Shown one piece after another: positions 5,913-18,137 of a stretch of 22,740 nucleotides of DNA (position 1 is the first letter of the stretch; every line of letters begins with the position of its first letter). The notes beneath the pieces were generated by a model that did not search any database, was not told the origin of the DNA, and worked only from the letters and a program-made list of their open reading frames with translations. The stretch lies in the NCBI GenBank assembly GCA_016235455.1, contig JACRKZ010000007.1, forward strand, positions 1-22,740, given 5' to 3'. The stretch is from Armatimonadota bacterium (GTDB lineage Bacteria; Armatimonadota; UBA10988). A program made the translations under genes and the position numbers.

Positions 5913-7553
5913 ATGGCCAAGGGGCGCTGGTTGCTCGCCGTACTGGGCCTGTTGGCGCTGGCGGTGCAGGCGGCCGATCTGGGCCCGCGCACCATGGACA
6001 AGCGCTGGCTGTTCGTCTGGCGCGGCATGGACGACGCCAAGGAGGTCGACCGCGTCATCGAGCGGCTGCCCGCGGCCAGCGCGGCGGGCTACAACGGCGT
6101 GGTTCTGCCGGCCAACGTCGCGCCCGAGCGTGCTCCGGCACTGCGCGCGGCGGCGGCCAAGGCCGGCCTGGACCTCGTGGCCGTGGTCATGGGCAACCCG
6201 CGCGACCGCAACTACATGGAGGGCGTGGAGGTCAAGGACGCGCTGTTCGTCGTGCGCGACGGTGCCTTGGCCTTCGTGCCCGACAACCCCATCCGGCTGC
6301 TGAACACCGACTTCGAGCAGGCGGCCGGCAACCAGCTTGGCGGCTGGACCATGCAGGACGACCCGGGCGTGACCACCTTCGTCGACCGCGAGGTCTACCA
6401 CGGCGGCAAGGCTGCACTGCGCCTGGAGGACGTCGGCCGCAACGCGGCGCGCCATGCGCGCGTGGCGCAGGCCTTCCGGCTCACGCCGCAGCGGCAGTAC
6501 CGGATCAGCTTCTGGGCGAAGACCGACGGCTTCCAGCCGGTAGACGCCGACGTCAAGGTGCTCACCGCCGATGCCTCGAAGACCATCTGCTTCCAGACCT
6601 TCCGTGCCGACCGCACCCAGGACTGGAAACGCTATGACCTGGTCTTCAACAGCCTGGAGCACAGCGATGCGCGCCTCTACGTCGGTTCGTGGGGAGGCGA
6701 CAAGGGCCGGATCTGGTTCGATGACCTGAGCATCGAGGAGATCGCGCTGGTCAACGTGCTGCGCCGGCCCGGCTGCCCGGTGACCGTGCGGCGCGACGAT
6801 GGCACGCCCCTGGCCGAGGGCCGCGATATCGGCCCGGTGATCGACCGTCAACTGCATCCCTGGCGCGGCTGGCACGAGCCGCCGGTGGTCAAGGTGTTGC
6901 CCGCGGGCACGCTGCGCGACGGCGACCGCGTGCGGCTGGGCTACTACCATTCGCTGATCGTCTACGAGGGGCGGCTCAACGGCTGCCTGAGCGAGCCGAA
7001 GATCCTCGACGACTGGCGCGACGAGGTGCGCGCCGCCGACCAACTGCTGCATCCGGCGGCGTTCCTCATGTCGCACGATGAGATCCGTGTGGCCAACCGC
7101 TGCGCGTTGTGCCGTGGCAAAGGCCTGACGCCTGGCGCACTGCTGGCCTGGAACGTGAAGCAGGCGGCGGCGATCATTCGCACCGCGCGGCCCGATGCCG
7201 GCATCTGGGTTTGGAGCGACATGTTCGACCCGCAGCACAATGCCGTGGACGACTACTATGCGGTGAACGGCTCGCTGAAGGGCTCGTGGCAGGGCCTCGA
7301 CTCGGACGTGGGCGTTGTCAACTGGCATGGCGAGTTGGCGGGCCGCAATTGTCAGTTCTTCGCCGATCTGGGTCTCAGGCAGATCCTGTCGGGCTACTAC
7401 GACGGCGACGACGACGGCTCGGCAGTCACGCGATGGCTGGCCAACACCGCGGGTGTGAAGGGCATCGTCGGCGCCATGTACACGACGTGGGAAGACAAGT
7501 ACGAGCCGATGACCACCTGGGCCAAGGCGGCCTGGGGCGAGGCGCGCCGCTAG
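5913..7553 (+). CDS. Secreted protein: putative GH20-like TIM-barrel glycoside hydrolase with an inserted CBM4/9-like domain
   Basis: Signal peptide MAKGRWLLAVLGLLALAVQA; LLNTDFE...GW...Y.ISFWAKT...DWKRY...IWFDDLSI beta-sandwich; C-terminal MSHDEIR, WVWSDMF, VVNWH, GAMYTTW. Confidence 0.7.
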   Translation: MAKGRWLLAVLGLLALAVQAADLGPRTMDKRWLFVWRGMDDAKEVDRVIERLPAASAAGYNGVVLPANVAPERAPALRAAAAKAGLDLVAVVMGNPRDRNYMEGVEVKDALFVVRDGALAFVPDNPIRLLNTDFEQAAGNQLGGWTMQDDPGVTTFVDREVYHGGKAALRLEDVGRNAARHARVAQAFRLTPQRQYRISFWAKTDGFQPVDADVKVLTADASKTICFQTFRADRTQDWKRYDLVFNSLEHSDARLYVGSWGGDKGRIWFDDLSIEEIALVNVLRRPGCPVTVRRDDGTPLAEGRDIGPVIDRQLHPWRGWHEPPVVKVLPAGTLRDGDRVRLGYYHSLIVYEGRLNGCLSEPKILDDWRDEVRAADQLLHPAAFLMSHDEIRVANRCALCRGKGLTPGALLAWNVKQAAAIIRTARPDAGIWVWSDMFDPQHNAVDDYYAVNGSLKGSWQGLDSDVGVVNWHGELAGRNCQFFADLGLRQILSGYYDGDDDGSAVTRWLANTAGVKGIVGAMYTTWEDKYEPMTTWAKAAWGEARR

Positions 7554-7569: not shown

Positions 7570-7598
7570 TTGCGCTGGTGTGCCGCAACGGTCATAAT
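7570..7598 (+). promoter_or_regulatory. Sigma70-type promoter TTGCGC-N17-CATAAT for the 9-gene operon
   Basis: -35 at 7570-7575 and -10 at 7593-7598, followed by SD GAGGAG (7615-7620) and ATG 7627. Confidence 0.6.
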
Positions 7599-7626
7599 GG
7601 CCCGCCGCTGGGAAGAGGAGTGCCGC

Positions 7627-9432
7627 ATGCCACAGTCGGTGCCAGGTCTGCTTCGCGAGTCCGCCGAGCGCTATGCCGCGCGGCCGGTTCTGTATCGTCG
7701 TCTGGCCGACAAGACGGTCGGCCACGAGACCTATGCCGACCTGCGCGCCGCCGTGGATCGCGCGGCCGCGGGGCTGGTGGCCTCTGGCGTGATGCCGGGC
7801 GACCATGTGGTGCTGCTCTCGGAGAATCGTCGCGAATGGGTGGTGGCCGACCTGGCCATCCAGTCCGTCGGCGCGGTGACCGTGCCGCTGTACCCGTCGC
7901 TACCCGCGCCGCAGGTGCAGCCGCTGATCAGCCGTGTGCGGGCCAAGGTGGTCATTCTCGATGACCACCGCCAATTGACCAAGCTCGACACCTGCCTGGC
8001 CGAGTTGCCGCTGGTGGAGCAGGTGTGGGTCTTCGACAGCGCCAAGATCCCCGCTGACCACCCGCTGGCGCGCGACTGGACCGTGCTCGAAGCGCAGGGC
8101 ACGGAGCGCATCGCCGAACTGCTGCCCGAAGTCGACCGGCGCATTGCCGCGCTCGGCGCGCACAGTCCGGCGACGATCATCTTCACCTCGGGTACGACCG
8201 GCGTGCCCAAGGGCGCCGTGCTGACCCATGGCAACTTCGTGACCAACGTGGACACTTCGCAGCGGCGCATCGCGCTCTACGATACCGACCGCCTGCTGGC
8301 TGTGCTGCCGCTGTCGCATGTGTTCCAGCGCATGATCACCTACCTGGGCCTGAGCGTCGGCGCGGGCTGCCTGTTCAACGAGAGCCTGCGCCACATGCTG
8401 CCCGACATGCTGGCGCTGCGGCCGACCATCATGATCATGGTGCCGCGCATGCTGGAGATGCTGCGCGACAAGGTGCTGTCCGGCGCGCGCGACAAGCAGG
8501 GCCTGGCCGGCACCATCGCGGGCTGGGCCATGGGGCTGGCGCCGCTGATCGGCCAGCGCTATCAGGACGGCAAGCCGCAAGGCGCCTGGATGAGCCTGCA
8601 GCAGAGCCTGGCCGAGCAGCGCGTCTACTCGGCGGTGCGCGAGCAACTCGGTCTCGACCAGTTGCGCTTCGCGGTGTCCGGTGGCGCGGCGCTGCCGGTG
8701 GACGTGAGCCGTTGGTTCCATGGCGTGGGCATGCGCGTCATCCAGGGCTATGGCCTGACGGAGACCTCGCCCGTGGTGGCGGTGAACCCCAGCGAGGGCC
8801 GCTACCGCTTCGAGACCATCGGCCCGCCGGTGGACCTGGTGGAAGTGCATATCGCGCCCGACGGCGAGTTGTGGACGCGCGGGCCGTGCAACATGGCCGG
8901 CTACTTCGAGATGCCCGAGGAGACGGCCGAGGCCATCGATGCCGACGGCTGGTTCCACACCGGTGACCTGGCCGCGCAGGACGCGGACGGACACATCCGC
9001 ATCGTCGGTCGCAAGAAGGAGATCATGGTGCTGGCCAGCGGCAAGAACGTCGCGCCGGTGCCCATCGAGGCGACGCTGGGCGAGAGCCCGCTGATCGAGC
9101 GGTGCGTGGTCTTCGCCGACGGCCAGCACGTGGTCTCGGCGCTGGTGGTGCCCGCCTTCGATGCGCTGTGGGAGGTGGTGGCCAAGTCGGCCGGCACGCC
9201 GGAGCGCGACGAGCAGAACACCTGGGTCACCTGCGACGCGGCCGCGCAGGCGGTGCGCGCCGAGATCGACCGATTGTCCGACGCCCTGGCGCCGTTCGAG
9301 CGGGTGCGGCGGTTCCGGCTGCTCACGCGGGACTTCTCGCTGGAACACGAGGAGGTCACGCCGACCATGAAGTTACGGCGGTCGATCATCGCCGAGCATT
9401 TCGCCGATCTGATTCGCGAGATGGCGGAGTAG
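7627..9432 (+). CDS. Long-chain fatty acid-CoA ligase (AMP-dependent synthetase; start revised to ATG 7627)
   Basis: IIFTSGTTGVPKGAVLTHGN, LPLSHVFQR, SGGAAL, QGYGLTETSP, GWFHTGD, GRKKE...SGKNVAP, TPTMKLRR. Confidence 0.95.
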   Translation: MPQSVPGLLRESAERYAARPVLYRRLADKTVGHETYADLRAAVDRAAAGLVASGVMPGDHVVLLSENRREWVVADLAIQSVGAVTVPLYPSLPAPQVQPLISRVRAKVVILDDHRQLTKLDTCLAELPLVEQVWVFDSAKIPADHPLARDWTVLEAQGTERIAELLPEVDRRIAALGAHSPATIIFTSGTTGVPKGAVLTHGNFVTNVDTSQRRIALYDTDRLLAVLPLSHVFQRMITYLGLSVGAGCLFNESLRHMLPDMLALRPTIMIMVPRMLEMLRDKVLSGARDKQGLAGTIAGWAMGLAPLIGQRYQDGKPQGAWMSLQQSLAEQRVYSAVREQLGLDQLRFAVSGGAALPVDVSRWFHGVGMRVIQGYGLTETSPVVAVNPSEGRYRFETIGPPVDLVEVHIAPDGELWTRGPCNMAGYFEMPEETAEAIDADGWFHTGDLAAQDADGHIRIVGRKKEIMVLASGKNVAPVPIEATLGESPLIERCVVFADGQHVVSALVVPAFDALWEVVAKSAGTPERDEQNTWVTCDAAAQAVRAEIDRLSDALAPFERVRRFRLLTRDFSLEHEEVTPTMKLRRSIIAEHFADLIREMAE

Positions 9433-9436
9433 ACTG

Positions 9437-9931
9437 GTGGCCGTGCCGACCCGCATCGACCGCGCCGTGTTCGGCGACTTGGAGGCCATCCTGACGCTGT
9501 TGCGGCTGTTGGCCTACGAGCACGAAGCGTTCGACGAGTCGTTTGCCGTGGCCGACGACTGGACGACGTCGATGGAGTCGTACCTGACCGAGCGCCTGCG
9601 TTCGCCCGAGCACCATGTGTCCGTCGCGCGCGAGGGCAGCGCCGTGGTCGGGGTGGTGGTGGCGTCGATGCGCTGGCAGCCGGTGTTCGCCGAGTCGCCG
9701 CGCGGCTACCTGGAGAACGTGGTGGTGGCGCCGTCGCGTCGACGCCAGGGCCTGGGCCGGCGGCTGGTCGAGGCGGCCAGCTTGTGGTGCGAGGCGCGCG
9801 GTGCGATGGCGGTGGAACTGAGCGTGGCCGTGGCCAACGGCGCCGGCCGCGAGTTCTGGGCCTCCATGGGATTCGAACCGGTGCTGCTGCAGATGCGGCG
9901 GCCGAGGCGCGCGGGCCACGGCCCTGAGTGA
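9437..9931 (+). CDS. GNAT family N-acetyltransferase
   Basis: Acetyl-CoA motif A VVAPSRRRQGLGRRLV; L.V..AN..GREFW.SMGF. Confidence 0.9.
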   Translation: MAVPTRIDRAVFGDLEAILTLLRLLAYEHEAFDESFAVADDWTTSMESYLTERLRSPEHHVSVAREGSAVVGVVVASMRWQPVFAESPRGYLENVVVAPSRRRQGLGRRLVEAASLWCEARGAMAVELSVAVANGAGREFWASMGFEPVLLQMRRPRRAGHGPE

Positions 9932-10353
9932 TTGAGGGACAGGCGGTGTCTAACGACTGGGAGCAGCAACGACGGCTGTCGGAGCAGGACGAAACCATGC
10001 TGCTCCGGCGCGCCTTGTCGGGTGAGGCTGCGCGTCGGAGCCAGGAATCCTGGCCCGCGCAGTGCAGCGTCGAGGTCTATGACATCGACGGGCAACTCAT
10101 CGACATGCGCACCGTGCCGCCCGAAGGGCTGACCATCGGCCGCTCGTCCGACCAGGACATCCGCCTGCCCGACCGCACCGTGTCGCGCCGGCACGCGCGC
10201 ATCGAACTGGCCGACGGGCACTACTGGCTGGACGACACCGGTAGTTTGAACGATACGCTGTTGGATGGCGAACCGGTGCGCGGCCGGGCCGAACTGCACG
10301 ACGGCGCGCAGTTGACCATCGGCCTGCACACGCTGCGCATCACCGTACGCTGA
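9928..10353 (+). CDS. FHA domain-containing protein
   Basis: LTIGRSSDQDIRL, VSRRHARI, DTGSLNDT, LHDGAQLTIG; GTGA overlap with the GNAT stop. Confidence 0.9.
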   Translation: MIEGQAVSNDWEQQRRLSEQDETMLLRRALSGEAARRSQESWPAQCSVEVYDIDGQLIDMRTVPPEGLTIGRSSDQDIRLPDRTVSRRHARIELADGHYWLDDTGSLNDTLLDGEPVRGRAELHDGAQLTIGLHTLRITVR

Positions 10354-10377
10354 TCGGCGACCATCGAGGAGGCAGGC

Positions 10378-12390
10378 TTGGCGCCCGAGGCCTGGAGCAA
10401 GTTGGCAATCGTCTTCGCCGCCGGTGCGCTCGGCCTCATCGGCTCGTTGCTCACCGGTCTGGTGATCGTGCCCTTCTGCGCGCGGCGCATGTTCATCAGC
10501 CGTGAGAGCAAGGTCGGCGTGGCCCAGGGCCGCACCGACGTCGTGCCCATGGGCGGCGGGTTCATCCTGCTTTTCGGCGTGACGCTGGTGGTCACCGTCT
10601 TCACCGCGCTCAAGCAGATCCGTACGGGCTATGCCGGCCTGTTCCTGCTCATCACCTGGGGCCACGCCGTGCTGGGCTTCCTGGACGACTACTCCAAGAC
10701 GCAGGTGCGCGGCATCGGCGAGAAGGCCAAAGTGGTACTCCAGGCCAGCCTGCTGTTGGCCTTTTCGGTGTTCTTCTACTGGTACGGCATGCGCATGGTG
10801 CCGGAGTCCGACCTGGGCCTGCTGACCTTGCCCTTCATTGGCGAGGTCGGGCTCAAGGTGGCCTACATCGGCTTCGTCATCGTCTTCCTGTTCGGCGTCT
10901 CCAATGCGGTCAACTTCACCGACGGGTTCAATGGCCTCGCGGGTGGGGTGGGCGCCATCGTGGCGCTGGCATTCGCCGTGATCACCTTTGTGGTGGGCGT
11001 CAGCGAGATCGAGCGGGCGCGCATCCTGCTCTGGCCCGACACGCCGACCGGCGCGCGCATGTTTGCCCTGAGCGTGATGAGCGCCGGCCTGGCCGGCAGC
11101 TGCATTGGCTATCTCTACTACAACTTCCGGCGCGGCTCCATCTACTTCGGTGATACCGGCTCCATGGCGCTCGGCTCGGCGCTGGCCTTCCTGGCGCTGT
11201 TCGCGCGCGCCGAGGTGCTCATGTTGGTCATCGGCGGGGTGTATACCGCCGAAATGCTCTCCAGCGGCCTCCAGAAGCTGTGCCAGAAAGGCTCGGAGCA
11301 CGTGGTGCATCCGGTCATGTTGCGGCGCGTGGAGCCCACGCTGCCGTTCATCATGGCGCCGCTGCACCACCATTTCGAGCACATCTGGCTGCGCGAGATG
11401 GAAGACGAGCACGGCCAGATCCCGCCCCAGGCGCGCGACCAGGTGCGGCGCGCGCTGACCCTGCGCGCCTGGATCGCCAGCGCCCTGTTCGCCGCCGTCG
11501 GCGTCATCGGGCAGTACGGCCGCTACGGCGAGCGCTGGGGCATCTTCAACTGGGCCTGCGTGGTCGGCCTGCTGATGATCGCCGGCCTGCTGGTCTACGG
11601 CATCCTGACCCGGTTGGTCTATGACTGCTACTTCATCGGCCCCGACCTGCAGCGGTCCGAACTGCTGACCCTCTATCGCGGTGTCCCGCTGCGGATCGGC
11701 GCCCTGCCGCTGTTCCATGTCTACCAGTTGACCGACATCCCGTTCGACAGCCTGGGCTATCTGGAGCGCCGGACCGCGCTGTTCCGGCTGCAGACCAACC
11801 GTGTCGACGCGCGCACGGCGTTCGGACTGCTGCATTTCGGCATGGCCGAGCGGAGCGACGGCCCGGCCCGCCTGGCCCATTTACGTCAGGCCATGGCCTA
11901 CTGGGGCCAGGTGCCGCGCGTACGCTTCCGCGCCGCGGGTCGGCAAGAGGTCCTCCGCCACATGGCCACCTGCCACGTGGCGCTGGGTCATCCGGCGCGC
12001 GCCGTGGAGAGCCTGGAAGAGCTGCACACCGCCACGGGTGATGCGTTGGTGCTCGACGATATCCGCGCGGTCATCGATGATGCGCTGAGCGCCGCCGAGG
12101 CCGGTTGGGCGCATTGGCGCGGCGACCGGCGCGAGGCGGCGCGACAGGAAGCGCTGCACGGCCACGAGGAGTTGGTGAACATCATGTACGGCCGCCGCGA
12201 GCGGGCGGTGCGCGTCTTGGAGCGGCTCCGCGAGACGCGTCCGGCGAGTGACGCCGAACGCATGGCGGTTGAGGATGAGGTGAGTTGGCTGGACGACGGG
12301 TTGGCGGTCGCCGACAACCGTTGTGAGCAACTGCGCGCCGCGGCCGGTACTGGAGCCGCGCGGCGCCGAGCGATTGCAGAAGGGAACTGA
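10378..12390 (+). CDS. Atypical MraY-family phospho-MurNAc-peptide transferase with a ~255-aa C-terminal helical (TPR-like) extension
   Basis: PMGGG, LGFLDDY, SNAVNFTDGFNGLA, YFGDTGSMALG, GGVYTAE, MAPLHHHFE; multiple TM segments; SD GAGGAGG before TTG. Confidence 0.88.
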   Translation: MAPEAWSKLAIVFAAGALGLIGSLLTGLVIVPFCARRMFISRESKVGVAQGRTDVVPMGGGFILLFGVTLVVTVFTALKQIRTGYAGLFLLITWGHAVLGFLDDYSKTQVRGIGEKAKVVLQASLLLAFSVFFYWYGMRMVPESDLGLLTLPFIGEVGLKVAYIGFVIVFLFGVSNAVNFTDGFNGLAGGVGAIVALAFAVITFVVGVSEIERARILLWPDTPTGARMFALSVMSAGLAGSCIGYLYYNFRRGSIYFGDTGSMALGSALAFLALFARAEVLMLVIGGVYTAEMLSSGLQKLCQKGSEHVVHPVMLRRVEPTLPFIMAPLHHHFEHIWLREMEDEHGQIPPQARDQVRRALTLRAWIASALFAAVGVIGQYGRYGERWGIFNWACVVGLLMIAGLLVYGILTRLVYDCYFIGPDLQRSELLTLYRGVPLRIGALPLFHVYQLTDIPFDSLGYLERRTALFRLQTNRVDARTAFGLLHFGMAERSDGPARLAHLRQAMAYWGQVPRVRFRAAGRQEVLRHMATCHVALGHPARAVESLEELHTATGDALVLDDIRAVIDDALSAAEAGWAHWRGDRREAARQEALHGHEELVNIMYGRRERAVRVLERLRETRPASDAERMAVEDEVSWLDDGLAVADNRCEQLRAAAGTGAARRRAIAEGN

Positions 12391-12393
12391 TCA

Positions 12394-13503
12394 GTGCGTG
12401 TGCTGCTGGTGGGCGGTCGTAGCGGTGGTCATATCTATGCCTTGGTCGCGGTCGCGGCGCATCTGCGCGCGCGCGACGCCGAGTGCCCGCTGCTCTTCGT
12501 GGGGGAGAAGGGCCGTATGGAAGAGGACTTCGTGCCCCGCGCGGGCTACGAGCTGACCGTCCTCGACATGCCGTCCGCCAGCGGACCCGCTTGGCGACGC
12601 GCGCTGAGTCTGCCGCGCTGGTGGTCGTTGTACCGCCAGTCGGCGGGCATCATCAAGCGCTTCGCGCCCGACGTGGTACTGGGCAGCGGCGGCCAGGTCT
12701 GCCTGCCCGTGCTCCTGGCCGCCAAGCGTGCCGGCCTGCCGACGCTGCTGCTGGAGCCGAACGCCATTCCCGGCTGGGCCAATCGCCTCACCGCCAAGTA
12801 CGCGCGGCCCGACATCGTCGGCCTGCTGCTGCCCGAGGCGGCGGACAAGTGGCCCACGGGCCAGCGCATCGAGATGACCGGCTATCCGCTACGGCCCGAG
12901 ATCCTCGACACGACCCGCGCCGAGGGCCTGGCCGCGCTGGGCCTCGACCCGGCCCGCCGCACGCTGCTTGTGTTCGGCGGCAGTCAGGGCTCGGGCCACC
13001 TCAACGACGTGCTGACCGCTTGGCTGGCCACCTGCGACGCGGCGTGGGCCGACGGCTGGCAGGTGCTGCACCTGGGCGGTTGGATCAATGCCAAGGGCTT
13101 CGACAGCGACCAACGGCCACGGCTGCCCTACCACTACCTGCCGTACCTGCACGAGATGGAGCAGGCCCTGGCCGCCGCAGACCTCGTGCTCGGCCGGGCC
13201 GGGGCGACCTCCATGGCCGAGTTGACCGCCCTGGGCCTGCCGGCGGTGCTTGTGCCGCTGGCGGGCGTGGCCGACAACCATCAGGTGCACAACACGCGCT
13301 GGATGGCGCAGTCCGGCGCCGCCGAGGTCATCGGCGACAGCGAGTTGACGCCGCAAAGGCTGGGCCAAGTGCTCGACTCGCTGTGTGGCGACCCGGCGCG
13401 GCTGGTGGCCATGGCCGACGCCAGCGCCGCACTGGGCACGCCCGACAGCGCCGAGCGCGTGGTGGCTCTGCTCGACGAACTCGCGGAGGGCCGGCGCTCA
13501 TGA
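12394..13503 (+). CDS. MurG-like glycosyltransferase (GT28), divergent
   Basis: GGRSGGHIYA, GSGGQVCLP, EPNAIPGWAN, TGYPLR, FGGSQGS, RAGATSMAEL, HQVHN. Confidence 0.88.
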   Translation: MRVLLVGGRSGGHIYALVAVAAHLRARDAECPLLFVGEKGRMEEDFVPRAGYELTVLDMPSASGPAWRRALSLPRWWSLYRQSAGIIKRFAPDVVLGSGGQVCLPVLLAAKRAGLPTLLLEPNAIPGWANRLTAKYARPDIVGLLLPEAADKWPTGQRIEMTGYPLRPEILDTTRAEGLAALGLDPARRTLLVFGGSQGSGHLNDVLTAWLATCDAAWADGWQVLHLGGWINAKGFDSDQRPRLPYHYLPYLHEMEQALAAADLVLGRAGATSMAELTALGLPAVLVPLAGVADNHQVHNTRWMAQSGAAEVIGDSELTPQRLGQVLDSLCGDPARLVAMADASAALGTPDSAERVVALLDELAEGRRS

Positions 13504-14510
13504 CCGAGCCGTACCTGCCGTCCCCGCTCGACGCCGCGCTGGCCGACTGGGCCCTTACGGACGCCCCGCGCACGCAGCTCACCGGCGATGTCTCGCCGCG
13601 CCAGTACTACCGGCTCCGCCTGCCCGATGGCGGCACCGGCGTGGTCATGGTCACGCCGGCCGAGAAGCTGCCCAGCCTGAGCGATTGGCTGGCCATCGGC
13701 GACTGGCTGGCCAGCCACGGATTGGCCGTGCCGCGCGTGCTGCGGCGTCGAGTGGACCTCGGCGTGCTGCTCATAGAGGATGGCGGCGACCGACTGCTGA
13801 CCGCGGTGGACGACGACGCGACCGCCGACGGCTGGTACCGCGATACGTTGAGCCGCCTGGCCGACCTGGAGCGCACCGCCGCGGGTGACACCAAGACCGC
13901 CAGCCCGGCGCACGGCCGGATCCTCACCGAGGAGCGCATGCGCTGGGAGCTGCGCCGCTACCGCAAGGTGGTGGCGGCACCGGTGACCGACCTGGACGAT
14001 GACGAACTGGCCCTGTGGAAGCGCGGCGAGGACCAGGTTGTAGCGGCGCTGCTGGCCGCGCCGCGGGTCTGGATGCACCGCGACCTGCATGCGCGCAACC
14101 TGCTTATCGCCGACGACCGCGCCATGTGGATCGACTTCCAGGATGCCATGATGGGCCCCTGGCAATATGACGCCGTGTCACTGCTGTTCGACCCCTACGC
14201 CGCACTCGATGAGGCCCGACGCGAGGCGCTGCGCGCGCACTACCTGGCCTGCTCCACCCACACCGCGGGCGACGGCGAGGCGGACGCACTATGGTGGCTC
14301 TGCGCGGTGCAGCGGCTGATCCACTGCGTGGCCTGCTATGTCTTTGTCTGCGAGCACCAGGCCAACAGCGCCTACGTGCGCTACCTGCCCTTCGCCCTCG
14401 ACCGGCTGCGCGAGGTCATGGCTCGTTGCGAGGCCGCCGAGCCGCTGGCCCGGGTGATGGCGCCGCGCTGGGCAGCGCTGGCCGAACGGTGGTGCGCCTA
14501 TGCCGAGTGA
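13500..14510 (+). CDS. AmgK-like anomeric MurNAc/GlcNAc kinase (APH/ChoK fold; start revised to ATG 13500)
   Basis: GDVSPRQYYRL (cf. AmgK DASFRRYFR), LLIEDGGD, HRDLHARNL, IDFQDAMMGP..YDAVSLL, AVQR, YVRYLP; ATGA overlap with the MurG-like stop. Confidence 0.85.
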   Translation: MTEPYLPSPLDAALADWALTDAPRTQLTGDVSPRQYYRLRLPDGGTGVVMVTPAEKLPSLSDWLAIGDWLASHGLAVPRVLRRRVDLGVLLIEDGGDRLLTAVDDDATADGWYRDTLSRLADLERTAAGDTKTASPAHGRILTEERMRWELRRYRKVVAAPVTDLDDDELALWKRGEDQVVAALLAAPRVWMHRDLHARNLLIADDRAMWIDFQDAMMGPWQYDAVSLLFDPYAALDEARREALRAHYLACSTHTAGDGEADALWWLCAVQRLIHCVACYVFVCEHQANSAYVRYLPFALDRLREVMARCEAAEPLARVMAPRWAALAERWCAYAE

Positions 14511-15591
14511 CCTGACCTTTCGCCTCTTGGCCGACGACGAGCGCGACCTGTGGGACGCGTTCGCCGCGGCGCATCCACGCAGCGACTTCGCTCAGGCCTG
14601 GGACTGGGGCCGCATGAAGGCCGAAGGCGAATGGTCGGTGGTGCGCGCCGGCCTGTTTGGCGCGGACGGGCTGGTGGCCGGCGCGCAGATCCTCACACGG
14701 CCGTTGCCCTACCTGGGCGGTCGGCTGGCCTATGCCTCGCGCGGGCCGCTGACCGATCTGGAGACCGTCGACGGAGCCGGGCAACGCGCCGCGCTGTTCG
14801 ACGGCCTCGAAGCTTGGTGCCGCGGCCAGGGCGCGGTCTGCCTCAAGGTCGATCCGTGCATCACCGCCGAGCACGACCGCTTCCTGCGCGTCTGTGGCGC
14901 GCGGCCGGCGCCGGTGGAGAACCCCGACTTCGGCGGCACGCAGCCCAAGTACGTCATGCGCCTCGACCTGAGCGCCGGGCTCGACCGCGTCATGGCGGGG
15001 TTCAAGCCCGACTATCGCAACCGCATCCGCAAGTCCGAACGCCGTGGCGTCACGGTGCGGCGCGCGGAGTCGACCGACGACTGGCGCGTGTGGTATGACC
15101 TGCTGCTCGGCACGGCCGACCGGCAGCACTTCCGCGTGCGCGCCTTCTCCTACTTCGAGTCCATTCGCACGCACCTCCAGGGCGCCTGCCAGGCGTGGCT
15201 GCTGGTGGCTGAACGCGAGGGCCGGCAAGTCGGCGGCATCTTGTGCCTGCGCTACGGACAGACCGTGTGGTACCTGTACGGCGCGATGAACGAAGAGGGC
15301 CGGGAGCATTACAGCGGCTACCTGCTGCAGTGGGACGCCATGCAGCGCGCCGTGGCCGAGGGTTGCGGCATGTACGACTTCCGCGGCGTGGCGCCCTTCG
15401 ACCGCGAGGACAGCCCGCATTTCGGCCTTAATCGCTTCAAGTCGGGCTTCGGACCCGCCGAAGTCGAGTGGGTGGGCGAGTGGGACCTGGTCTTCTCGCC
15501 ATGGCGCTATCAGGCGTTCAACTTCCTGCTGCCCCGGGCGCGAGCCCTCGTGCCGCGGCTCAAGGCGCTGCTGCGCCGGGGACGCGGGTGA
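14500..15591 (+). CDS. FemABX/FemX-like aminoacyl-tRNA-dependent peptidoglycan peptidyltransferase
   Basis: FAQAWDWG..K, YASRGP, LKVDP, QPKY...LDL, RNRIRKSERRGV, YLYGA, LLQW, YDFRGV, GLNRFKSGFG, VGEWD. Confidence 0.9.
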   Translation: MPSDLTFRLLADDERDLWDAFAAAHPRSDFAQAWDWGRMKAEGEWSVVRAGLFGADGLVAGAQILTRPLPYLGGRLAYASRGPLTDLETVDGAGQRAALFDGLEAWCRGQGAVCLKVDPCITAEHDRFLRVCGARPAPVENPDFGGTQPKYVMRLDLSAGLDRVMAGFKPDYRNRIRKSERRGVTVRRAESTDDWRVWYDLLLGTADRQHFRVRAFSYFESIRTHLQGACQAWLLVAEREGRQVGGILCLRYGQTVWYLYGAMNEEGREHYSGYLLQWDAMQRAVAEGCGMYDFRGVAPFDREDSPHFGLNRFKSGFGPAEVEWVGEWDLVFSPWRYQAFNFLLPRARALVPRLKALLRRGRG

Positions 15592-16532
15592 TCGGCGGCC
15601 CGCCGCTGCGTCCGCTGGTGCTCGCCGCCGGGCTGGGCCAGCGGCTGCGCCCGCTGACGCTGACCCAGCCCAAGCCGCTGGTGCCGGTCTGCGGCCGGCC
15701 CGTGGTCGAGCCGCTCCTGGAATGGCTGGCCGACTCCGGGCTGCGTGATGTCGCCATCAACAGCCACTGGCTGCCGGACGTGCTGCGTGACCACCTGGGC
15801 GATGGCTCGCGCCTGGGCGTGACGCTGCACTGGCAGCATGAGCCCGAGTTGCGCGAGGGCGCGGGTACCCTCAAGTCGTTCGAGCAGTTCCTCGGCGAAG
15901 CCACGGCCCTGGTGGTCAATGGCGATTGCGTGCTGGACATCGACCTGGCGGCCGCGGTGGCCGCGCACCGAGCCGCGGGCAGCGTGCTCACGCTGGTCTG
16001 TGCGCCGGTCATGGGTCCGCTGGCCAGGCCCGTTAGCTTCGACGAGTCGGGGTGGTTGCGCGGTATCCGGCGCTACGGCCTGGACGATCCACGGGGCAGT
16101 CAGCGGGCCGAGTTCATTGGCGTCCATCTGGTGGAGCCCGAGGTATGGCGCCGCCACATCCCGCGCGGCAAGCGCTGCAATCTGGTCGCCGACGTCATCC
16201 CGCGGCTGCTGGCGCGCGGCCTGCCCGTGGCGGTCCACGTCGCATCCGGCCTGTTCTGCGACATCGGCGACATCGACAGCCTGCAGCGTGCGGCGCGGCT
16301 GGTGCTCGACCGGCGGCCGGCGCGTTACCTGCGGGCCGCGCAAGAGGTCAGCTTCGGTGTCTGGTGCGAGCCCGGCGCGCAGGTGCTGGGCCAGGTTGTG
16401 CCGCCGGTCTACCTGGGCGCCGGCGCGCGGCTGGCGCAGGGCGCCCGGCTGGGCCCCTACGCGGTCCTTCCGGCCGGCTGCACGTTGCCGGCGGGCGCCT
16501 TTCTGGCGTATGGTGTGGGGCAAGGAGCCTGA
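15588..16532 (+). CDS. Sugar-1-phosphate nucleotidyltransferase, MurU-like (start revised to GTG 15588)
   Basis: LAAGLGQRLRPLT...PKPLVPV, INSHWL, VVNGD, FCDIG; short C-terminal hexapeptide-like repeats; GTGA overlap with the femX-like stop. Confidence 0.88.
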   Translation: MIGGPPLRPLVLAAGLGQRLRPLTLTQPKPLVPVCGRPVVEPLLEWLADSGLRDVAINSHWLPDVLRDHLGDGSRLGVTLHWQHEPELREGAGTLKSFEQFLGEATALVVNGDCVLDIDLAAAVAAHRAAGSVLTLVCAPVMGPLARPVSFDESGWLRGIRRYGLDDPRGSQRAEFIGVHLVEPEVWRRHIPRGKRCNLVADVIPRLLARGLPVAVHVASGLFCDIGDIDSLQRAARLVLDRRPARYLRAAQEVSFGVWCEPGAQVLGQVVPPVYLGAGARLAQGARLGPYAVLPAGCTLPAGAFLAYGVGQGA

Positions 16533-16533
16533 G

Positions 16534-17805
16534 ATGAGCGAGGAGACCCGCTGGCCGCGACTGTACCGCGTTACGCGGCGCTTCCCCGGCACGCCGGTGG
16601 CCGATATCGCCGCCGCCACGCGCGAGGCCCTGGGCGCGCTGCACCTGGAGTCGCGGGTCAAGTCCGGCCAGCGCGTCGTCATCACTGCGGGCAGTCGCGG
16701 CGTGGCCAACATCGTGGCCGCCACCGCCGCTGCCGTGGCCGAGGTCCGGCGGCTGGGCGCCGAGCCCATCGTCATCCCGGCCATGGGCTCACATGGTGGT
16801 GGTACGCCCGAGGGCCAGCTCGCGGTGTTGAGCAGCTACGGCTTCACCCCCGACGCCGTCGGTGCCCCGGTCATCTCGCAGGGCGAGGTCGTCGGACTGG
16901 GTAACACCGAGGGCGGCGTGCCGCTCTTCGCCGACCGCCTCGCCGCCGAGGCGGACGGCATTCTGGTGATCAACCGGGTCAAACCGCACACCGACTTCAC
17001 CGGCGAGCTCGAGAGCGGGCCCAACAAGATGCTGGCCATCGGCCTGGGCAAGAAGCACAGCGCCTCCACCTGCCACAGCTGGTTCTGCGAGCGGGGCTAC
17101 GACGCGGTGCTGCGCGAGGTGGGCGCGGCGCTGTGGCAGCGACTGCCCATGCTCGGCGCGCTCGGTCTGGTCGAGAACGGACACCATGAGACCGTGCGCA
17201 TCGGTGCCGTGCGACCCGCCTCGCCGCACGCCGATGAGGCGGAGCTGCTCGCGGAATCGCGCAAGGTTTTTGGTTACCTGCCGTACGAACGGCTCGACGT
17301 TCTGGTCGTCGACCGTCTGGGCAAGGACATCTCCGGCTCCGGCATGGACCCCAACGTCACCGGGTCCGACGGCTGCAAGCTGCATGGCCGACGGCAGACG
17401 CCGTTCATCTGGCGCATCTGCGTGCGCAACCTGTCGGCCGCGACACACGGCAACGCCACCGGCATCGGCAACGCCGACTATGCCCTGCGGCGGTGCGTCG
17501 ACCAGGTGGACTGGGCGGCGACCTACACCAACACCGTCGCCGCGGCGTCGCCCGAGGGCGCGCGCTGCCCGGTGGTGTTCGACACCGACGCGGCCATGCT
17601 CGAGGCGGCCTTCCGCACCTCCGGCCCGCGGCCGCCGGCCGGCAAACGGCTGGTGTGGATCCGCGACACTCTGCGTGTGGACGACATCCTGGTCAGCGAG
17701 GCGCTGCTCGACGAACTGCGCGACGAGCTCGTGACCAGCATCTCACCCTATGAGTCGGGGCTTGATCTGGACCACGACGGCTTCCTGGGCAACCCCTGGG
17801 CCTAG
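16534..17805 (+). CDS. LarA (lactate racemase)-superfamily / DUF2088-type protein (start revised to ATG 16534)
   Basis: ITAGSRGVANI, PAMGSHGGGT.EGQ, INRVKPHTDF, ESG..KMLAIGLGK, GKDISGSGMDPNVTG, GNATGIG.AD, IRDTL; SD AAGGAG at 16522-16527. Confidence 0.82.
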   Translation: MSEETRWPRLYRVTRRFPGTPVADIAAATREALGALHLESRVKSGQRVVITAGSRGVANIVAATAAAVAEVRRLGAEPIVIPAMGSHGGGTPEGQLAVLSSYGFTPDAVGAPVISQGEVVGLGNTEGGVPLFADRLAAEADGILVINRVKPHTDFTGELESGPNKMLAIGLGKKHSASTCHSWFCERGYDAVLREVGAALWQRLPMLGALGLVENGHHETVRIGAVRPASPHADEAELLAESRKVFGYLPYERLDVLVVDRLGKDISGSGMDPNVTGSDGCKLHGRRQTPFIWRICVRNLSAATHGNATGIGNADYALRRCVDQVDWAATYTNTVAAASPEGARCPVVFDTDAAMLEAAFRTSGPRPPAGKRLVWIRDTLRVDDILVSEALLDELRDELVTSISPYESGLDLDHDGFLGNPWA

Positions 17806-18092
17806 CCAGAGAGCGCCCGCGCGAAGTCCACGTCGGCCTGCGTCACGCCGCCCGCGGAGTGAGTCGTGGTGGTCACGGTCAGCGTGCGCGTGGTGGTGCA
17901 GAGCACGACGTCGGGGTGGTGTCCGGTGGACTCGATAGTGTCGGCCAGCCGCCGCACGAGCACGGTGATCTCCGCGAACGAGGCGCAGATGAAGCGTCGA
18001 GTGAGCGCGCGGCCCAGGAATGCCCAGTCCGGCAGCGCGGCCAGCGCCTCGGCCACCTGCGCGGGACCCAAGGCCCGCTTGTCTTCCGCCAT
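17802..18092 (-). CDS. Pterin-4-alpha-carbinolamine dehydratase (start revised to ATG 18092)
   Basis: 96 aa; LPDW, L.RRF...SF, GHHPDV, TTHSAGGVT..DVDFA; SD GGGAG. Stop overlaps the convergent LarA-like stop in CTAG. Confidence 0.9.
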   Translation of the reverse strand: MAEDKRALGPAQVAEALAALPDWAFLGRALTRRFICASFAEITVLVRRLADTIESTGHHPDVVLCTTTRTLTVTTTTHSAGGVTQADVDFARALSG

Positions 18093-18104
18093 GGCGTGTC
18101 TCCC

Positions 18105-18137
18105 AAAAGCAAACGGCCCGGCCGAAGCCGGGCCGCT
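18105..18137 (-). terminator. Intrinsic terminator after the response regulator
   Basis: Minus strand AGCGGCCCGGC-TTCG-GCCGGGCCG-TTTGCTTTT: perfect GC stem, C(UUCG)G loop and U tail. Confidence 0.85.

Follow-up and report, generated by a model that had tools for sequence, protein, structure and literature searches.

Does a compact run of nine genes in an Armatimonadota genome return muramic acid to lipid-linked peptidoglycan precursors without the Mur ligases, or does it belong to the ordinary pathway? The question arises from the window, a stretch of DNA of 22,740 nucleotides, in which MraY-, MurG-, AmgK-, FemX- and MurU-like genes stand side by side while murC-F and ftsW are, as the initial annotation rightly stated, absent from the block. 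That annotation proposed that MurNAc-peptides are re-activated without Mur ligases, or a variant peptidoglycan built, in the order kinase, nucleotidyltransferase, MraY and MurG. With moderate confidence, we arrive at a different answer: the block would be the family's main lipid-linked peptidoglycan operon, arranged around a long paralogue of MraY, and would not bypass the Mur ligases.

Layout and conservation of the block

The nine open reading frames are intact and lie between positions 7627 and 17805, all on the + strand. With the chosen starts, their junctions measure +4, -4, +24, +3, -4, -11, -4 and +1 bp, and stop and start codons overlap at four of the eight, which agrees with the co-oriented genes with overlaps or gaps of 1-24 bp described initially. 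The first gene (7627..9432; 601 aa from ATG 7627, the frame being open from 7570) encodes a long-chain acyl-CoA ligase-like protein with Pfam AMP-binding (2e-79) and AMP-binding_C_3 domains, whose best NCBIfam match is FadD11 (292 bits, far under the cut-off of 950). It is followed by a GNAT acetyltransferase (9437..9931, 164 aa; Pfam Acetyltransf_1, 1.8e-18), a small FHA-domain protein (9928..10353, 141 aa; Pfam FHA, 5.6e-19), the long MraY paralogue (10378..12390, 670 aa; Pfam Glycos_transf_4, 3.6e-26; NCBIfam MraY, TIGR00445), MurG (12394..13503, 369 aa; GT28 N and C, 2.2e-21 and 9.2e-32), an AmgK-family kinase as a separate gene (13500..14510, 336 aa; Pfam APH, 5.1e-23), a FemX-like aminoacyl-tRNA-dependent transferase (14500..15591, 363 aa; Pfam FemAB, 1e-43), a MurU-like sugar-1-phosphate nucleotidyltransferase (15588..16532, 314 aa; Pfam NTP_transferase, 1.3e-23) and a LarA-like nickel-pincer-cofactor isomerase (16534..17805, 423 aa; NCBIfam NPN isomerase group 22). 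Pfam and NCBIfam profiles thus support the gene identities first given at the level of families; among the best NCBIfam names of the nine genes, only that of the LarA-like protein passes its curated cut-off (NF052515, 440.4 bits against 400), and all peptidoglycan-specific scores fall under theirs.

A Shine-Dalgarno-like GGAAGAGGAG sits 5' of ATG 7627. The candidate promoter proposed at 7570..7598 on the + strand (TTGCGC-17 nt-CATAAT) is weak; it matches the consensus at 8 of 12 positions and missed the threshold of a scan that returned 0 promoter-like sites between 7000 and 18500 (0.8 expected). Because another + strand gene (5913-7553) ends 73 bp before ATG 7627, transcription could begin further upstream. 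The scan detected no terminator-like site within the block and three at 18061-18137, against 3.1 expected.

Gene order is retained in all five relatives compared within the block's own family (f1, six genomes), at 44-70% amino-acid identity, so that a chance arrangement can be dismissed; the gene combination is indeed conserved, as had been anticipated. The common order is ACS-(GNAT)-FHA-MraY-MurG-kinase-FemX-(NTP transferase). The acyl-CoA ligase-like gene lies upstream in 5/5 relatives, the FHA gene is immediately 5' of the long MraY in 5/5 and MurG separates the long MraY from the kinase in 5/5; GNAT is present in four of the five (missing in G001), and the MurU-like gene occurs in all four whose contig reaches far enough. 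The synteny first suggested, from mraY to larA, held up to the MurU-like gene but not beyond, as the LarA-like gene adjoins the block only here and in G001, lies about 4 kb off in G003 and did not appear next to the block in either G002 or G004. This gene, which barely passes Pfam Lar_N (3.8e-5; 23.4 bits vs a cut-off of 23.3) and gave no PDB sequence match, is probably a loose, unrelated passenger; the genome also encodes LarC (463.9 bits). Judged from these sequence comparisons, the nine genes form a genuine cell-wall operon that one Armatimonadota family has conserved, and they would be co-transcribed.

The Mur pathway and the sole copies of MraY and MurG

A route free of Mur ligases was not borne out. 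A search for murA-F outside the block recovered MurC, MurD, MurE, MurF and MurB, all above their NCBIfam cut-offs (393.8, 358.2, 475.6, 389.4 and 193.3 bits, respectively), and MurA, which the search of this 93%-complete assembly did not recover, is present in 5/5 family relatives. A remnant dcw cluster (rsmH-PBP-murE-murF-ftsW) lies on contig C144, where the murF and ftsW frames overlap by 4 nt and therefore leave no room for mraY-murD. The sole MraY-type match in the genome is that of the window, the two weaker GT4 genes being WecA-like. In an assembly where MurA is missing, a canonical MraY may be missed as well, yet none was found in any of the six f1 genomes, which have the long form alone (145.5-160.8 bits; open frames of 657-695 aa); canonical MraY was above cut-off in 20 of the 31 genomes searched. 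MurG (210.6 bits against TIGR01133, cut-off 250.25; 209.7-239 in f1) likewise has a single match in its own genome, that of the window, and one in each of the 31 genomes. As sole copies, the MraY-like protein and MurG of the block must therefore be responsible for ordinary lipid I and lipid II. The outcome named at the outset as speaking against a bypass, that these are the genome's only ordinary mraY and murG, applies as regards copy number but not as regards MraY itself, which is a divergent, long-tailed paralogue.

The remaining enzymes of the block are assigned with less precision. The FemX-like protein scores 87.6 bits against NCBIfam FemX (cut-off 500) and matches 6snr, a lipid II:glycine glycyltransferase (5.4e-31), and Weissella FemX (1.1e-20) in the PDB. 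Full-length relatives in other families share 35-42% identity, and FemX matches are wide but patchy, occurring in 18 of the 31 genomes, including families without long MraY; this search found none in G008 or G023. A second FemAB gene is located on contig C51. For the MurU-like protein, the score against NCBIfam MurU (113.9 bits, cut-off 250) is a statistical tie with other sugar-1-phosphate nucleotidyltransferases, the mannose-1-P guanylyltransferase model giving 111.1. Its PDB matches are 4y7t (6.9e-28, over residues 8-137 only), 8x7s (1.7e-27) and the MurU 8hhd (2.9e-20), and it exceeds solved MurU proteins (231 and 239 aa) by about 90 residues, with an extra repeat-like C-terminal tail.

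The long MraY paralogue, its kinase and its FHA protein

The long MraY scores 155.7 bits against TIGR00445, under the cut-off of 192.05, and comprises a core (aa 1-~350), TM10-TM11 (aa 352-415) and a beta/TPR/coiled-coil arm (aa 416-~655). All five PDB sequence matches are MraY, and its AlphaFold2 model (pLDDT 88.4, pTM 0.83) matched MraY structures exclusively among the fold matches listed (E up to 7.6e-10; TMt 0.77-0.87). The DD, NxxNxxDG and GDTGS motifs and the MraY-specific HHH loop are kept, with invariant residues D103, D104, N176, N179, D182, D259 and H330-H332, and the enzyme is predicted from residues and model to be catalytically complete; the second Asp of DGxDG is Asn in five of the six f1 proteins. 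The model has an 11th membrane helix, and helix count and topology would place the arm in the cytoplasm. In the tree, long and fused MraY domains form a group of their own (SH-aLRT 98), set apart from a WecA-like outgroup and the 18 canonical copies, which on this phylogeny makes the long MraY an old, lineage-specific paralogue clade.

The arm itself (~250 residues; 11623..12390 of the + strand, within the MraY gene) has a narrow distribution. A profile built on aa 359-658 matched 34 of 301 Armatimonadota genomes (6/6 in f1, 1/1 in f4, 10/12 in f18, 2/2 in f21, 14/15 in f25, and G123 of f38), and only 18 whole-arm matches were obtained among 1.84 billion representative proteins, the remainder being generic TPR. 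It gave no significant PDB fold match and only weak TPR leads in the Atlas (0.83). Outside f1, the long MraY coexists with canonical MraY: of the 28 arm holders there, 26 have a top TIGR00445 match of canonical strength (E <= 3.4e-70). We found no description in the literature of this long form, which has an FHA protein and a module resembling sugar kinases as its companions, and it is apparently undescribed.

The kinase, the sole AmgK-type gene in the genome, scores 83.6 bits against NCBIfam AmgK (cut-off 550; profile positions 27-318 of 324) and matches PDB 3csv (4.2e-22). Its catalytic loop reads HRDLHARN, followed by IDFQDA, and its nearest kinases outside the family are stand-alone proteins (27-36% identity), some of which JGI annotates as N-acetylmuramate 1-kinase. 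AmgK-profile matches above 40 bits occur in 41 of the 301 phylum genomes, 33 of them arm holders. GT4 and APH domains share a single chain in 6/10 library representatives and in both relatives' proteins scanned; the kinase part lies within one frame of 971-1075 aa in 16 of the 18 fetched other-family loci, and AmgK is its best match among kinase families in 6/6. The tree of kinases did not resolve descent of the f1 kinase from a fused domain. In the other families, no MurU-like gene neighbours the kinase module, the best NTP-transferase matches being at least 23 kb off or on different contigs, which makes salvage less convincing as a purely metabolic account of why MraY and the kinase are linked. 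Nor was an acyl-CoA ligase-like gene found within about 9 kb of the 18 loci.

The FHA protein matches NCBIfam FhaB/FipA (1.9e-15) and OdhI (8.7e-12), both under cut-off. It carries an N-terminal acidic-Thr motif (acidic-acidic-T-x-hydrophobic-hydrophobic-R), which reads EQDETMLLRRAL in the window and EETQLLRRAL in relatives, and which is present in 5/5 relatives' and 12/12 other-family FHA genes read. Seven Hanks-type kinases are encoded in the genome, one of them about 1.6 kb from a SEDS gene.

Competing readings and a proposed model

It is conceivable, albeit rather unlikely in our view, that the AmgK-like protein, even in f1, is mainly the control partner of the long MraY and not a MurNAc salvage enzyme. 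A kinase-fold sensor or protein kinase would then gate lipid I synthesis with the FHA protein, much as happens in mycobacteria, where FhaA and the pseudokinase domain of MviN regulate the synthesis of the cell wall (the MviN-PknB-FhaA precedent, described in PMC12599244). Fusion of the kinase fold to the MraY arm in other families is consistent with such a role, as are the near-confinement of this fold in the phylum to genomes with long MraY, the fused domains without a MurU-like neighbour, the FHA gene with its acidic-Thr motif directly 5' (12/18 other-family loci, 5/5 relatives and the window) and the Hanks-type kinases. Moreover, in the fused domains, Glu replaces the catalytic Asp in 17/17 compared, His replaces the catalytic-loop Asn in 10/17, and conserved changes affect 20 of 35 AmgK-invariant positions. 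The window kinase, in contrast, retains all 35 invariant or near-invariant positions of 27 AmgK-family proteins, including HRD..N and DFQD, resembles stand-alone AmgK-type kinases (128 bits) more than it does the fused domains (about 40-62 bits) and stands two genes from a MurU-like gene kept in 4/4 assessable relatives. APH-fold enzymes are, in addition, mostly small-molecule kinases.

A merely historical adjacency, with no shared regulation or physical coupling, is improbable: no link to peptidoglycan is evident for the acyl-CoA ligase, GNAT and LarA-like genes, and the latter two are sometimes absent in relatives, but the overlapping codons at half of the junctions, the order kept throughout the relatives and an FHA-MraY-kinase core found in six families, often fused, argue against it. 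We regard the re-activation of MurNAc-peptides or the building of a variant peptidoglycan as very improbable. Five contiguous enzyme types with no Mur ligase in the block would suit it, the divergence of the kinase and the nucleotidyltransferase makes altered substrates possible, and channelling would fit the physical connection of MraY and kinase in relatives. However, the genome has the complete Mur ligase set and MurB, the sole MraY and MurG must also serve the normal pathway, the sequences bear no sign of acceptance of peptide-bearing MurNAc, the other-family module comes without the nucleotidyltransferase, and FemX is a widespread phylum gene. The chance that the block makes a non-peptidoglycan undecaprenyl-linked glycan is slimmer still; scores of MraY and MurG under equivalog cut-offs, and the coexistence of long and canonical MraY in other families, might point that way, but there is no other MraY or MurG for peptidoglycan although MurB-F, FtsW, PBPs and FemX are retained, and the HHH loop, the complete catalytic residues and the PDB matches are those of MraY. 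Taken as a whole, the initial annotation was right about identities at family level, layout and conservation, whereas its central idea of a pathway free of Mur ligases found no support.

The reading that we favour is that of a main lipid-linked peptidoglycan operon. MurA/B and MurC-F, encoded elsewhere, would supply UDP-MurNAc-pentapeptide to the MraY and MurG of the block, which would be the cell's source of ordinary lipid I and lipid II. The 11th membrane helix would return the MraY chain to the cytoplasm, the arm following. The long MraY always travels with an AmgK-family kinase fold, usually fused to the arm end in five other families and a separate gene in f1, and usually with the small FHA protein; arm and FHA protein might control or scaffold lipid I synthesis, the latter as a phospho-threonine switch on which one of the Ser/Thr kinases of the genome would act. 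Free MurNAc may be turned back into UDP-MurNAc by the AmgK-type kinase together with the MurU-like protein, still via MurC-F, and FemX may add the residue of the side chain; this model gives no role to the acyl-CoA ligase, GNAT and LarA-like genes. In f1, the dcw cluster would have shrunk and lost its canonical MraY, and the long paralogue would have taken over, with murG, femX and the sugar-1-phosphate nucleotidyltransferase gathered beside it.

The nine-gene block and the Mur pathway of its genome

Nine intact open reading frames were read on the + strand between positions 7627 and 17805, in line with the nine co-oriented genes proposed in the initial annotation. By their Pfam and NCBIfam matches they encode, in order, an AMP-binding acyl-CoA ligase (ACS), a GNAT protein, a small FHA protein, a MraY-like protein of 670 aa (the long MraY), MurG, an AmgK-like APH kinase, a FemX-like protein, a MurU-like nucleotidyltransferase and a LarA-like protein. 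With the starts chosen in this analysis, the successive junctions are +4, -4, +24, +3, -4, -11, -4 and +1 bp, and the terminator scan found no terminator-like site inside the block. The candidate promoter TTGCGC-17-CATAAT matches 8 of 12 consensus positions and was not called by the promoter scan. A co-oriented gene for a secreted carbohydrate-binding protein ends 73 bp upstream of the block (positions 5913-7553); its 546-aa product has a CBM_4_9 domain and a hydrophobic N-terminus that, read by eye, resembles a signal peptide, and the gene could be on the block's transcript. The flanking genes are housekeeping genes (ruvCAB, URO-D-like, pterin dehydratase, response regulator, EF-G), and the window is the complete contig C24 (22,740 bp), part of a 6.5-Mb assembly that is 93% complete and has 65-73% G+C.

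The gene combination is kept in the window's own family, f1: the order ACS-(GNAT)-FHA-MraY-MurG-kinase-FemX-(nucleotidyltransferase) was found in all five relatives, at 44-70% identity. The names carried by close homologues put f1 in Armatimonadota. GNAT is absent from the block in one of them, and the LarA-like gene adjoins the block only in the window and in the relative G001.

The Mur-ligase-free route suggested for this block did not hold, since MurC (C178, 393.8 bits), MurD (C139, 358.2 bits), MurE and MurF (C144, 475.6 and 389.4 bits) and also MurB (C101) are encoded elsewhere in the genome. The five Mur_ligase_M genes of the genome are named MurE, MurF, MurC, MurD and FolC by NCBIfam. 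A reduced dcw cluster, rsmH-PBP-murE-murF-ftsW-(ftsQ-like), remains on contig C144; in it the murF and ftsW reading frames overlap by 4 nt, so that mraY and murD are cleanly missing from their usual position; the long MraY gene lies on a different contig from this remnant. MurA was not found in the 93%-complete assembly, where the best match (31 bits) is probably AroA. As MurA is above the cut-off in 5/5 f1 relatives, its absence is most likely an assembly gap, and for the same reason MurNAc auxotrophy of this genome was dropped as an explanation.

The only MraY-type match and the only MurG match of the genome are the genes of the window, the two weaker GT4 genes being WecA-like. Judging from this gene content, the block must therefore supply the normal lipid I and lipid II of the cell. 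We infer that the long MraY transfers phospho-MurNAc-pentapeptide to C55-P, because no other MraY-type gene was found in this genome, which does encode MurB-F, FtsW and PBPs. A 609-aa protein encoded at C159:17808-19637 of the same genome, with a WecA/MraY-family domain and an EPS-type polyprenyl glycosylphosphotransferase domain, seems to unite two initiating transferases in one chain.

MurG has both GT28 domains and scores 210.6 bits with TIGR01133 (cut-off 250.25). Across the 31 phylum genomes searched, MurG gave a single match in each, with scores forming a continuum from 200.8 to 316, and we treated the window protein as the probable orthologue. One canonical MurG match (G025:C67:50297-51370) contains one in-frame TAG. 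The FemX-like protein is assigned by its profile matches to the FemABX family (Pfam FemAB, PF02388, 1e-43, 150.2 bits, above the cut-off of 24; NCBIfam FemX NF047883, 87.6 bits, below 500; PDB 6snr, 5.4e-31). The genome also has a second FemAB-family gene (C51:4058-5479; 473 aa when read from the first start, within an open frame of 653 aa), whose product shares 32% identity with the FemX-like protein and is extended by a long stretch at the N-terminus. The MurU-like protein reaches 113.9 bits with NF045761 (cut-off 250), a tie with the mannose-1-P guanylyltransferase model (111.1 bits), and its PDB matches are 4y7t (6.9e-28, partial), 8x7s (1.7e-27) and 8hhd (2.9e-20). The LarA-like protein exceeds the cut-off of the NPN isomerase group 22 model NF052515 (440.4 bits, cut-off 400), and LarC is encoded on C137 (463.9 bits). 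In the searched text of PMC11770544 this group is given no function, and neither group 22, LarAH22 nor peptidoglycan is mentioned.

The long MraY and its relatives in Armatimonadota

The long MraY scores 155.7 bits with TIGR00445 (157.7 in the genome search) and does not reach the equivalog cut-off of 192.05. Its alignment shows a complete MraY core that shares the motifs DD, NxxNxxDG, GDTGS and HHH with canonical MraY, all of them invariant. Across 24 sequences, the PNPT catalytic residues D103, D104, N176, N179, D182, G183 and D259 do not vary, the one exception in these motifs being DGxDG, whose second Asp is replaced by Asn in 5/6 f1 sequences. The MraY-specific HHH motif of cytoplasmic loop E is also kept (H330, H331 and H332 invariant). 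In a PDB sequence search, all five matches were MraY. The AlphaFold2 model (pLDDT 88.4, pTM 0.83) shares the canonical fold over residues 1-~370 (TIGR00445; PDB 4J72, 9ZNO, 8G01): the listed matches at E up to 7.6e-10 of the PDB fold search were all MraY, with TMt 0.77-0.87, and DPAGT1 came next at ~0.62.

Unlike the canonical ten-helix enzyme of ~320-390 aa, the long MraY has in this model an eleventh membrane helix (387-415) and an arm of ~250 residues, made of a small beta unit (418-455) and a helical TPR/coiled-coil part that extends to 655. MraY has an N-out/C-out topology, so that the extra helix places the arm, in the model, on the cytoplasmic side. A search of the arm against PDB folds gave no significant match, the best being a TPR protein (E 0.033), and the Atlas gave only sub-threshold TPR leads (0.83). 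The complex prediction for the arm (aa 425-670) and the AmgK-like protein had a score of 0.00 and a mark of 0.32, and is uninformative either way.

Canonical MraY was above the cut-off in 20 of the 31 phylum genomes searched. All six f1 genomes have the long form only, which scores 145.5-160.8 bits and lies in frames open for 657-695 aa. In a profile search, the arm was present in 34/301 Armatimonadota genomes, belonging to f1 (6/6), f4 (1/1), f18 (10/12), f21 (2/2) and f25 (14/15), plus the f38 genome G123. Outside f1, the open frame of an arm match is usually ~950-1090 aa, the 7 shorter ones of 29 lying at contig ends or in split frames, and the best TIGR00445 match is of canonical level in 26 of 28 arm holders. 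Only 18 whole-arm matches were found among 1.84 billion representative proteins, 11 of them 925-1013 aa long, and a MraY domain occurs together with an APH kinase domain in 6/10 representatives scanned. In a MraY-domain tree of 6 f1, 12 fused and 18 canonical sequences (the latter from 13 families) with a WecA-like outgroup, the f1 proteins and the MraY-kinase fusions form one group (SH-aLRT 98), in which the two are sisters (100 and 99). Because the tree unites them apart from canonical MraY, the long MraY is, on this phylogeny, an old paralogue, and it is the only copy found in f1. It thus differs from canonical MraY in its location outside dcw, its score under the equivalog cut-off and its separate clade.

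At two f25 loci (G132:C1:3940830-3942801 and G271:C1:767210-769181), the MraY-arm and kinase parts occupy neighbouring frames of their own (716 + 400 aa, and a kinase frame of 262 aa), which reflects either independent splits or sequencing frameshifts. None of the three f9 genomes (G013, G028, G099) has a MraY match at E <= 1e-28; in the two included in the 31-genome search, the best MraY-profile scores are 68-76 bits, a WecA level, and MurG scores 295-303 bits. The f11 genomes have MraY matches of only ~90-150 bits. MraY seems unusually plastic across Armatimonadota.

The FHA protein and the AmgK-like kinase

An FHA gene lies directly 5' of the long MraY gene in the window, in 5/5 f1 relatives and at 12 of 18 other-family loci; at f18 loci it was found in 0/6. 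In the f1 relatives (5/5) and in the other-family FHA genes read (12/12), an acidic run followed by T-x-hydrophobic-hydrophobic-R precedes the FHA domain; the window's own protein has EQDETMLLRRAL. The acidic Thr motif resembles the phospho-acceptor/FHA-docking motifs of GarA/OdhI-type switches, which are likewise small proteins with an N-terminal acidic Thr motif and then one FHA domain. The block protein matches the NCBIfam OdhI model at 8.7e-12 and is under the OdhI and FhaB cut-offs. Unlike GarA/OdhI, the other-family FHA proteins have in addition an N-terminal zinc ribbon. The target of the FHA protein is presumed to be the MraY module, in contrast to the dehydrogenase of the GarA/OdhI type. 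The genome encodes seven Hanks-type kinases. One of its four SEDS genes (RodA/FtsW-type, C6:21203-22273) is followed, ~1.6 kb downstream, by a gene for a Hanks-type Ser/Thr kinase (C6:23851-24483), a pair reminiscent of the actinobacterial rodA-pbpA-pknA-pknB neighbourhood.

The AmgK-like kinase scores 83.6 bits with the AmgK model NF045759, aligned to positions 27-318 of the model's 324, without reaching the cut-off of 550, and both its APH-type catalytic loop HRDLHARN (HxDxxxxN) and the metal-binding Asp in IDFQDA are intact. The kinases of f1 retain HRDLHARN...D(F/Y)QDA and, like the window kinase, preserve each of the 35 positions found to be invariant or almost invariant in a set of 27 AmgK-family proteins. 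Moreover, 30 invariant columns are common to the window kinase and stand-alone kinases of other phyla, some of these being labelled N-acetylmuramate 1-kinase; the nearest proteins outside f1 are stand-alone kinases, at 27-36% identity.

For the fused kinase part, AmgK is the best among kinase families in 6/6 proteins (23-54 bits), and in the fusion-bearing genomes (5/5) this part is the sole match to the window kinase. The AmgK-family profile matches 41/301 genomes, and matches >40 bits all fall in f1, in f2 (same order as f1) or in holders of a long MraY. All 17 fused domains compared have Glu in place of the catalytic Asp, the loop Asn is His in 10 of them, and conserved changes affect 20 of the 35 AmgK-invariant positions; the metal-binding Asp is kept. 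This pattern looks like altered function rather than decay. The kinase tree has three clean clades (f1, fused, AmgK from outside) that join at one node, a meeting which does not decide whether the f1 kinase descends from a fused domain. One f18 genome has an intermediate AmgK-profile match (G264:C157:846-1751, 150 bits, 644-aa frame). The only f2 genome, G006, has an f1-like stand-alone kinase (C357:167-1177, 297 bits), and no long MraY was found in its assembly (88% complete, 710 contigs).

MurG, FemX, nucleotidyltransferase, ACS, GNAT and LarA genes were all absent within ~9 kb of the 18 other-family long-MraY loci. Because of this, the old core is, as far as gene neighbourhoods indicate, FHA, long MraY and kinase, and the nine-gene block is a family-level addition. 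FemX orthologues were found in 18/31 genomes, including many families that lack the long MraY, which sets FemX outside the old core. Among the features of a control module, the MraY-kinase fusion occurs in relatives and not in the window, and the conserved Thr motif is the only docking candidate seen.

Readings of the block and their meaning

We consider it fairly probable that in f1 a regulated paralogue took the place of canonical MraY and the operon formed around it, with the kinase and the MurU-like protein serving salvage and the arm and FHA protein regulating or scaffolding. The regulated paralogue would have displaced the canonical enzyme and then seeded a lipid-linked peptidoglycan operon, in which MraY and MurG would carry out the ordinary lipid I and lipid II steps and FemX would attach a residue as a branch. 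MurNAc would be turned by the AmgK-type kinase and the MurU-like enzyme into UDP-MurNAc, which would pass onward via MurC-F, and the arm and the FHA protein would regulate or scaffold the MraY step. AmgK-MurU is the MurNAc salvage pathway of Pseudomonas, with UDP-MurNAc as its product. As in that pathway (NF045759, NF045761; 4Y7T, 8HHD), the block pairs a kinase of the AmgK family, its catalytic loop complete, with a MurU-like gene, here in one operon, and the same expected product would feed MurC. It differs from the Pseudomonas system in that both proteins score far under the family cut-offs, the nucleotidyltransferase has 314 aa where solved MurU proteins have 231 and 239, bears an additional tail at its C-terminus and ties with ManC-type models, femX lies between the kinase and MurU-like genes, and mraY and murG lie alongside. 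In the sister families, the kinase fold is instead fused to MraY and lacks a MurU partner.

It is also conceivable, though rather unlikely, that, even in f1, the kinase serves mainly as a partner that regulates MraY. This is supported by analogy with the mycobacterial MviN(MurJ)-pseudokinase/PknB/FhaA system, which controls cell-wall synthesis according to an excerpt of PMC12599244. Both systems appear to combine a polytopic enzyme of peptidoglycan precursors with an intracellular kinase fold, an FHA partner and Ser/Thr kinases in the genome. The enzyme is the lipid I synthase MraY in Armatimonadota and a flippase in the MviN system, the kinase fold originates from AmgK/APH small-molecule kinases and not from Hanks kinases, and, unlike the MviN pseudokinase domain, the window kinase is encoded by a gene of its own and its catalytic residues are intact. 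A merely historical gene neighbourhood is improbable, next to the gene order shared by all f1 relatives. The bypass of the Mur ligases, for which the block does have a kinase and a nucleotidyltransferase, is very improbable in a genome with all four ligases, and it is hardly credible that the block, with the sole MraY and MurG of the genome, builds a non-peptidoglycan glycan.

Beyond the salvage reading, the conserved trio of a zinc-ribbon/FHA protein with its acidic Thr motif, the MraY paralogue with its eleventh helix and cytoplasmic TPR/coiled-coil arm, and the AmgK-derived kinase fold might, as a tentative proposal by analogy, be a hitherto unrecognised control unit acting where peptidoglycan synthesis first reaches the membrane. 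A fold derived from a MurNAc kinase could perhaps sense or phosphorylate a turnover product or the FHA protein, and thereby gate lipid I synthesis. With the same reserve, the trio may be a functional analogue of MviN-pseudokinase-FhaA acting on MraY from a sugar-kinase fold, and the regulated paralogue may have wholly replaced the canonical enzyme in f1. MurG2 of Kitasatospora is a precedent for the location outside dcw of a gene for a membrane step of peptidoglycan synthesis: this alternative lipid II synthase is present as an extra copy beside the dcw MurG, as reported in part of PMC8092295. There MurG is duplicated, whereas in f1 MurG is single-copy and the paralogue is MraY. In the literature searched, no published description was found of a MraY-kinase fusion, of a MraY-FHA pairing or of this operon, and the word MraY does not occur in the available part of the bacterial pseudokinase review (PMC12599244).

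Since the MraY, MurG, AmgK and MurU proteins fall under their cut-offs, genomes like this one may be misjudged in annotation as unable to make lipid I/II. MraY is essential to cells and a target of antibiotics, and to our knowledge the tuning of its activity in cells is still poorly understood. A MraY with a kinase-fold fusion and an FHA partner, which is the sole MraY in one lineage, would thus offer a natural system for the control of lipid I, and for asking how cell-wall turnover or Ser/Thr phospho-signalling can be linked to lipid I synthesis. The f1 family would be an example of paralogous displacement of a core dcw gene, with the dcw cluster reorganised around the displacing copy.
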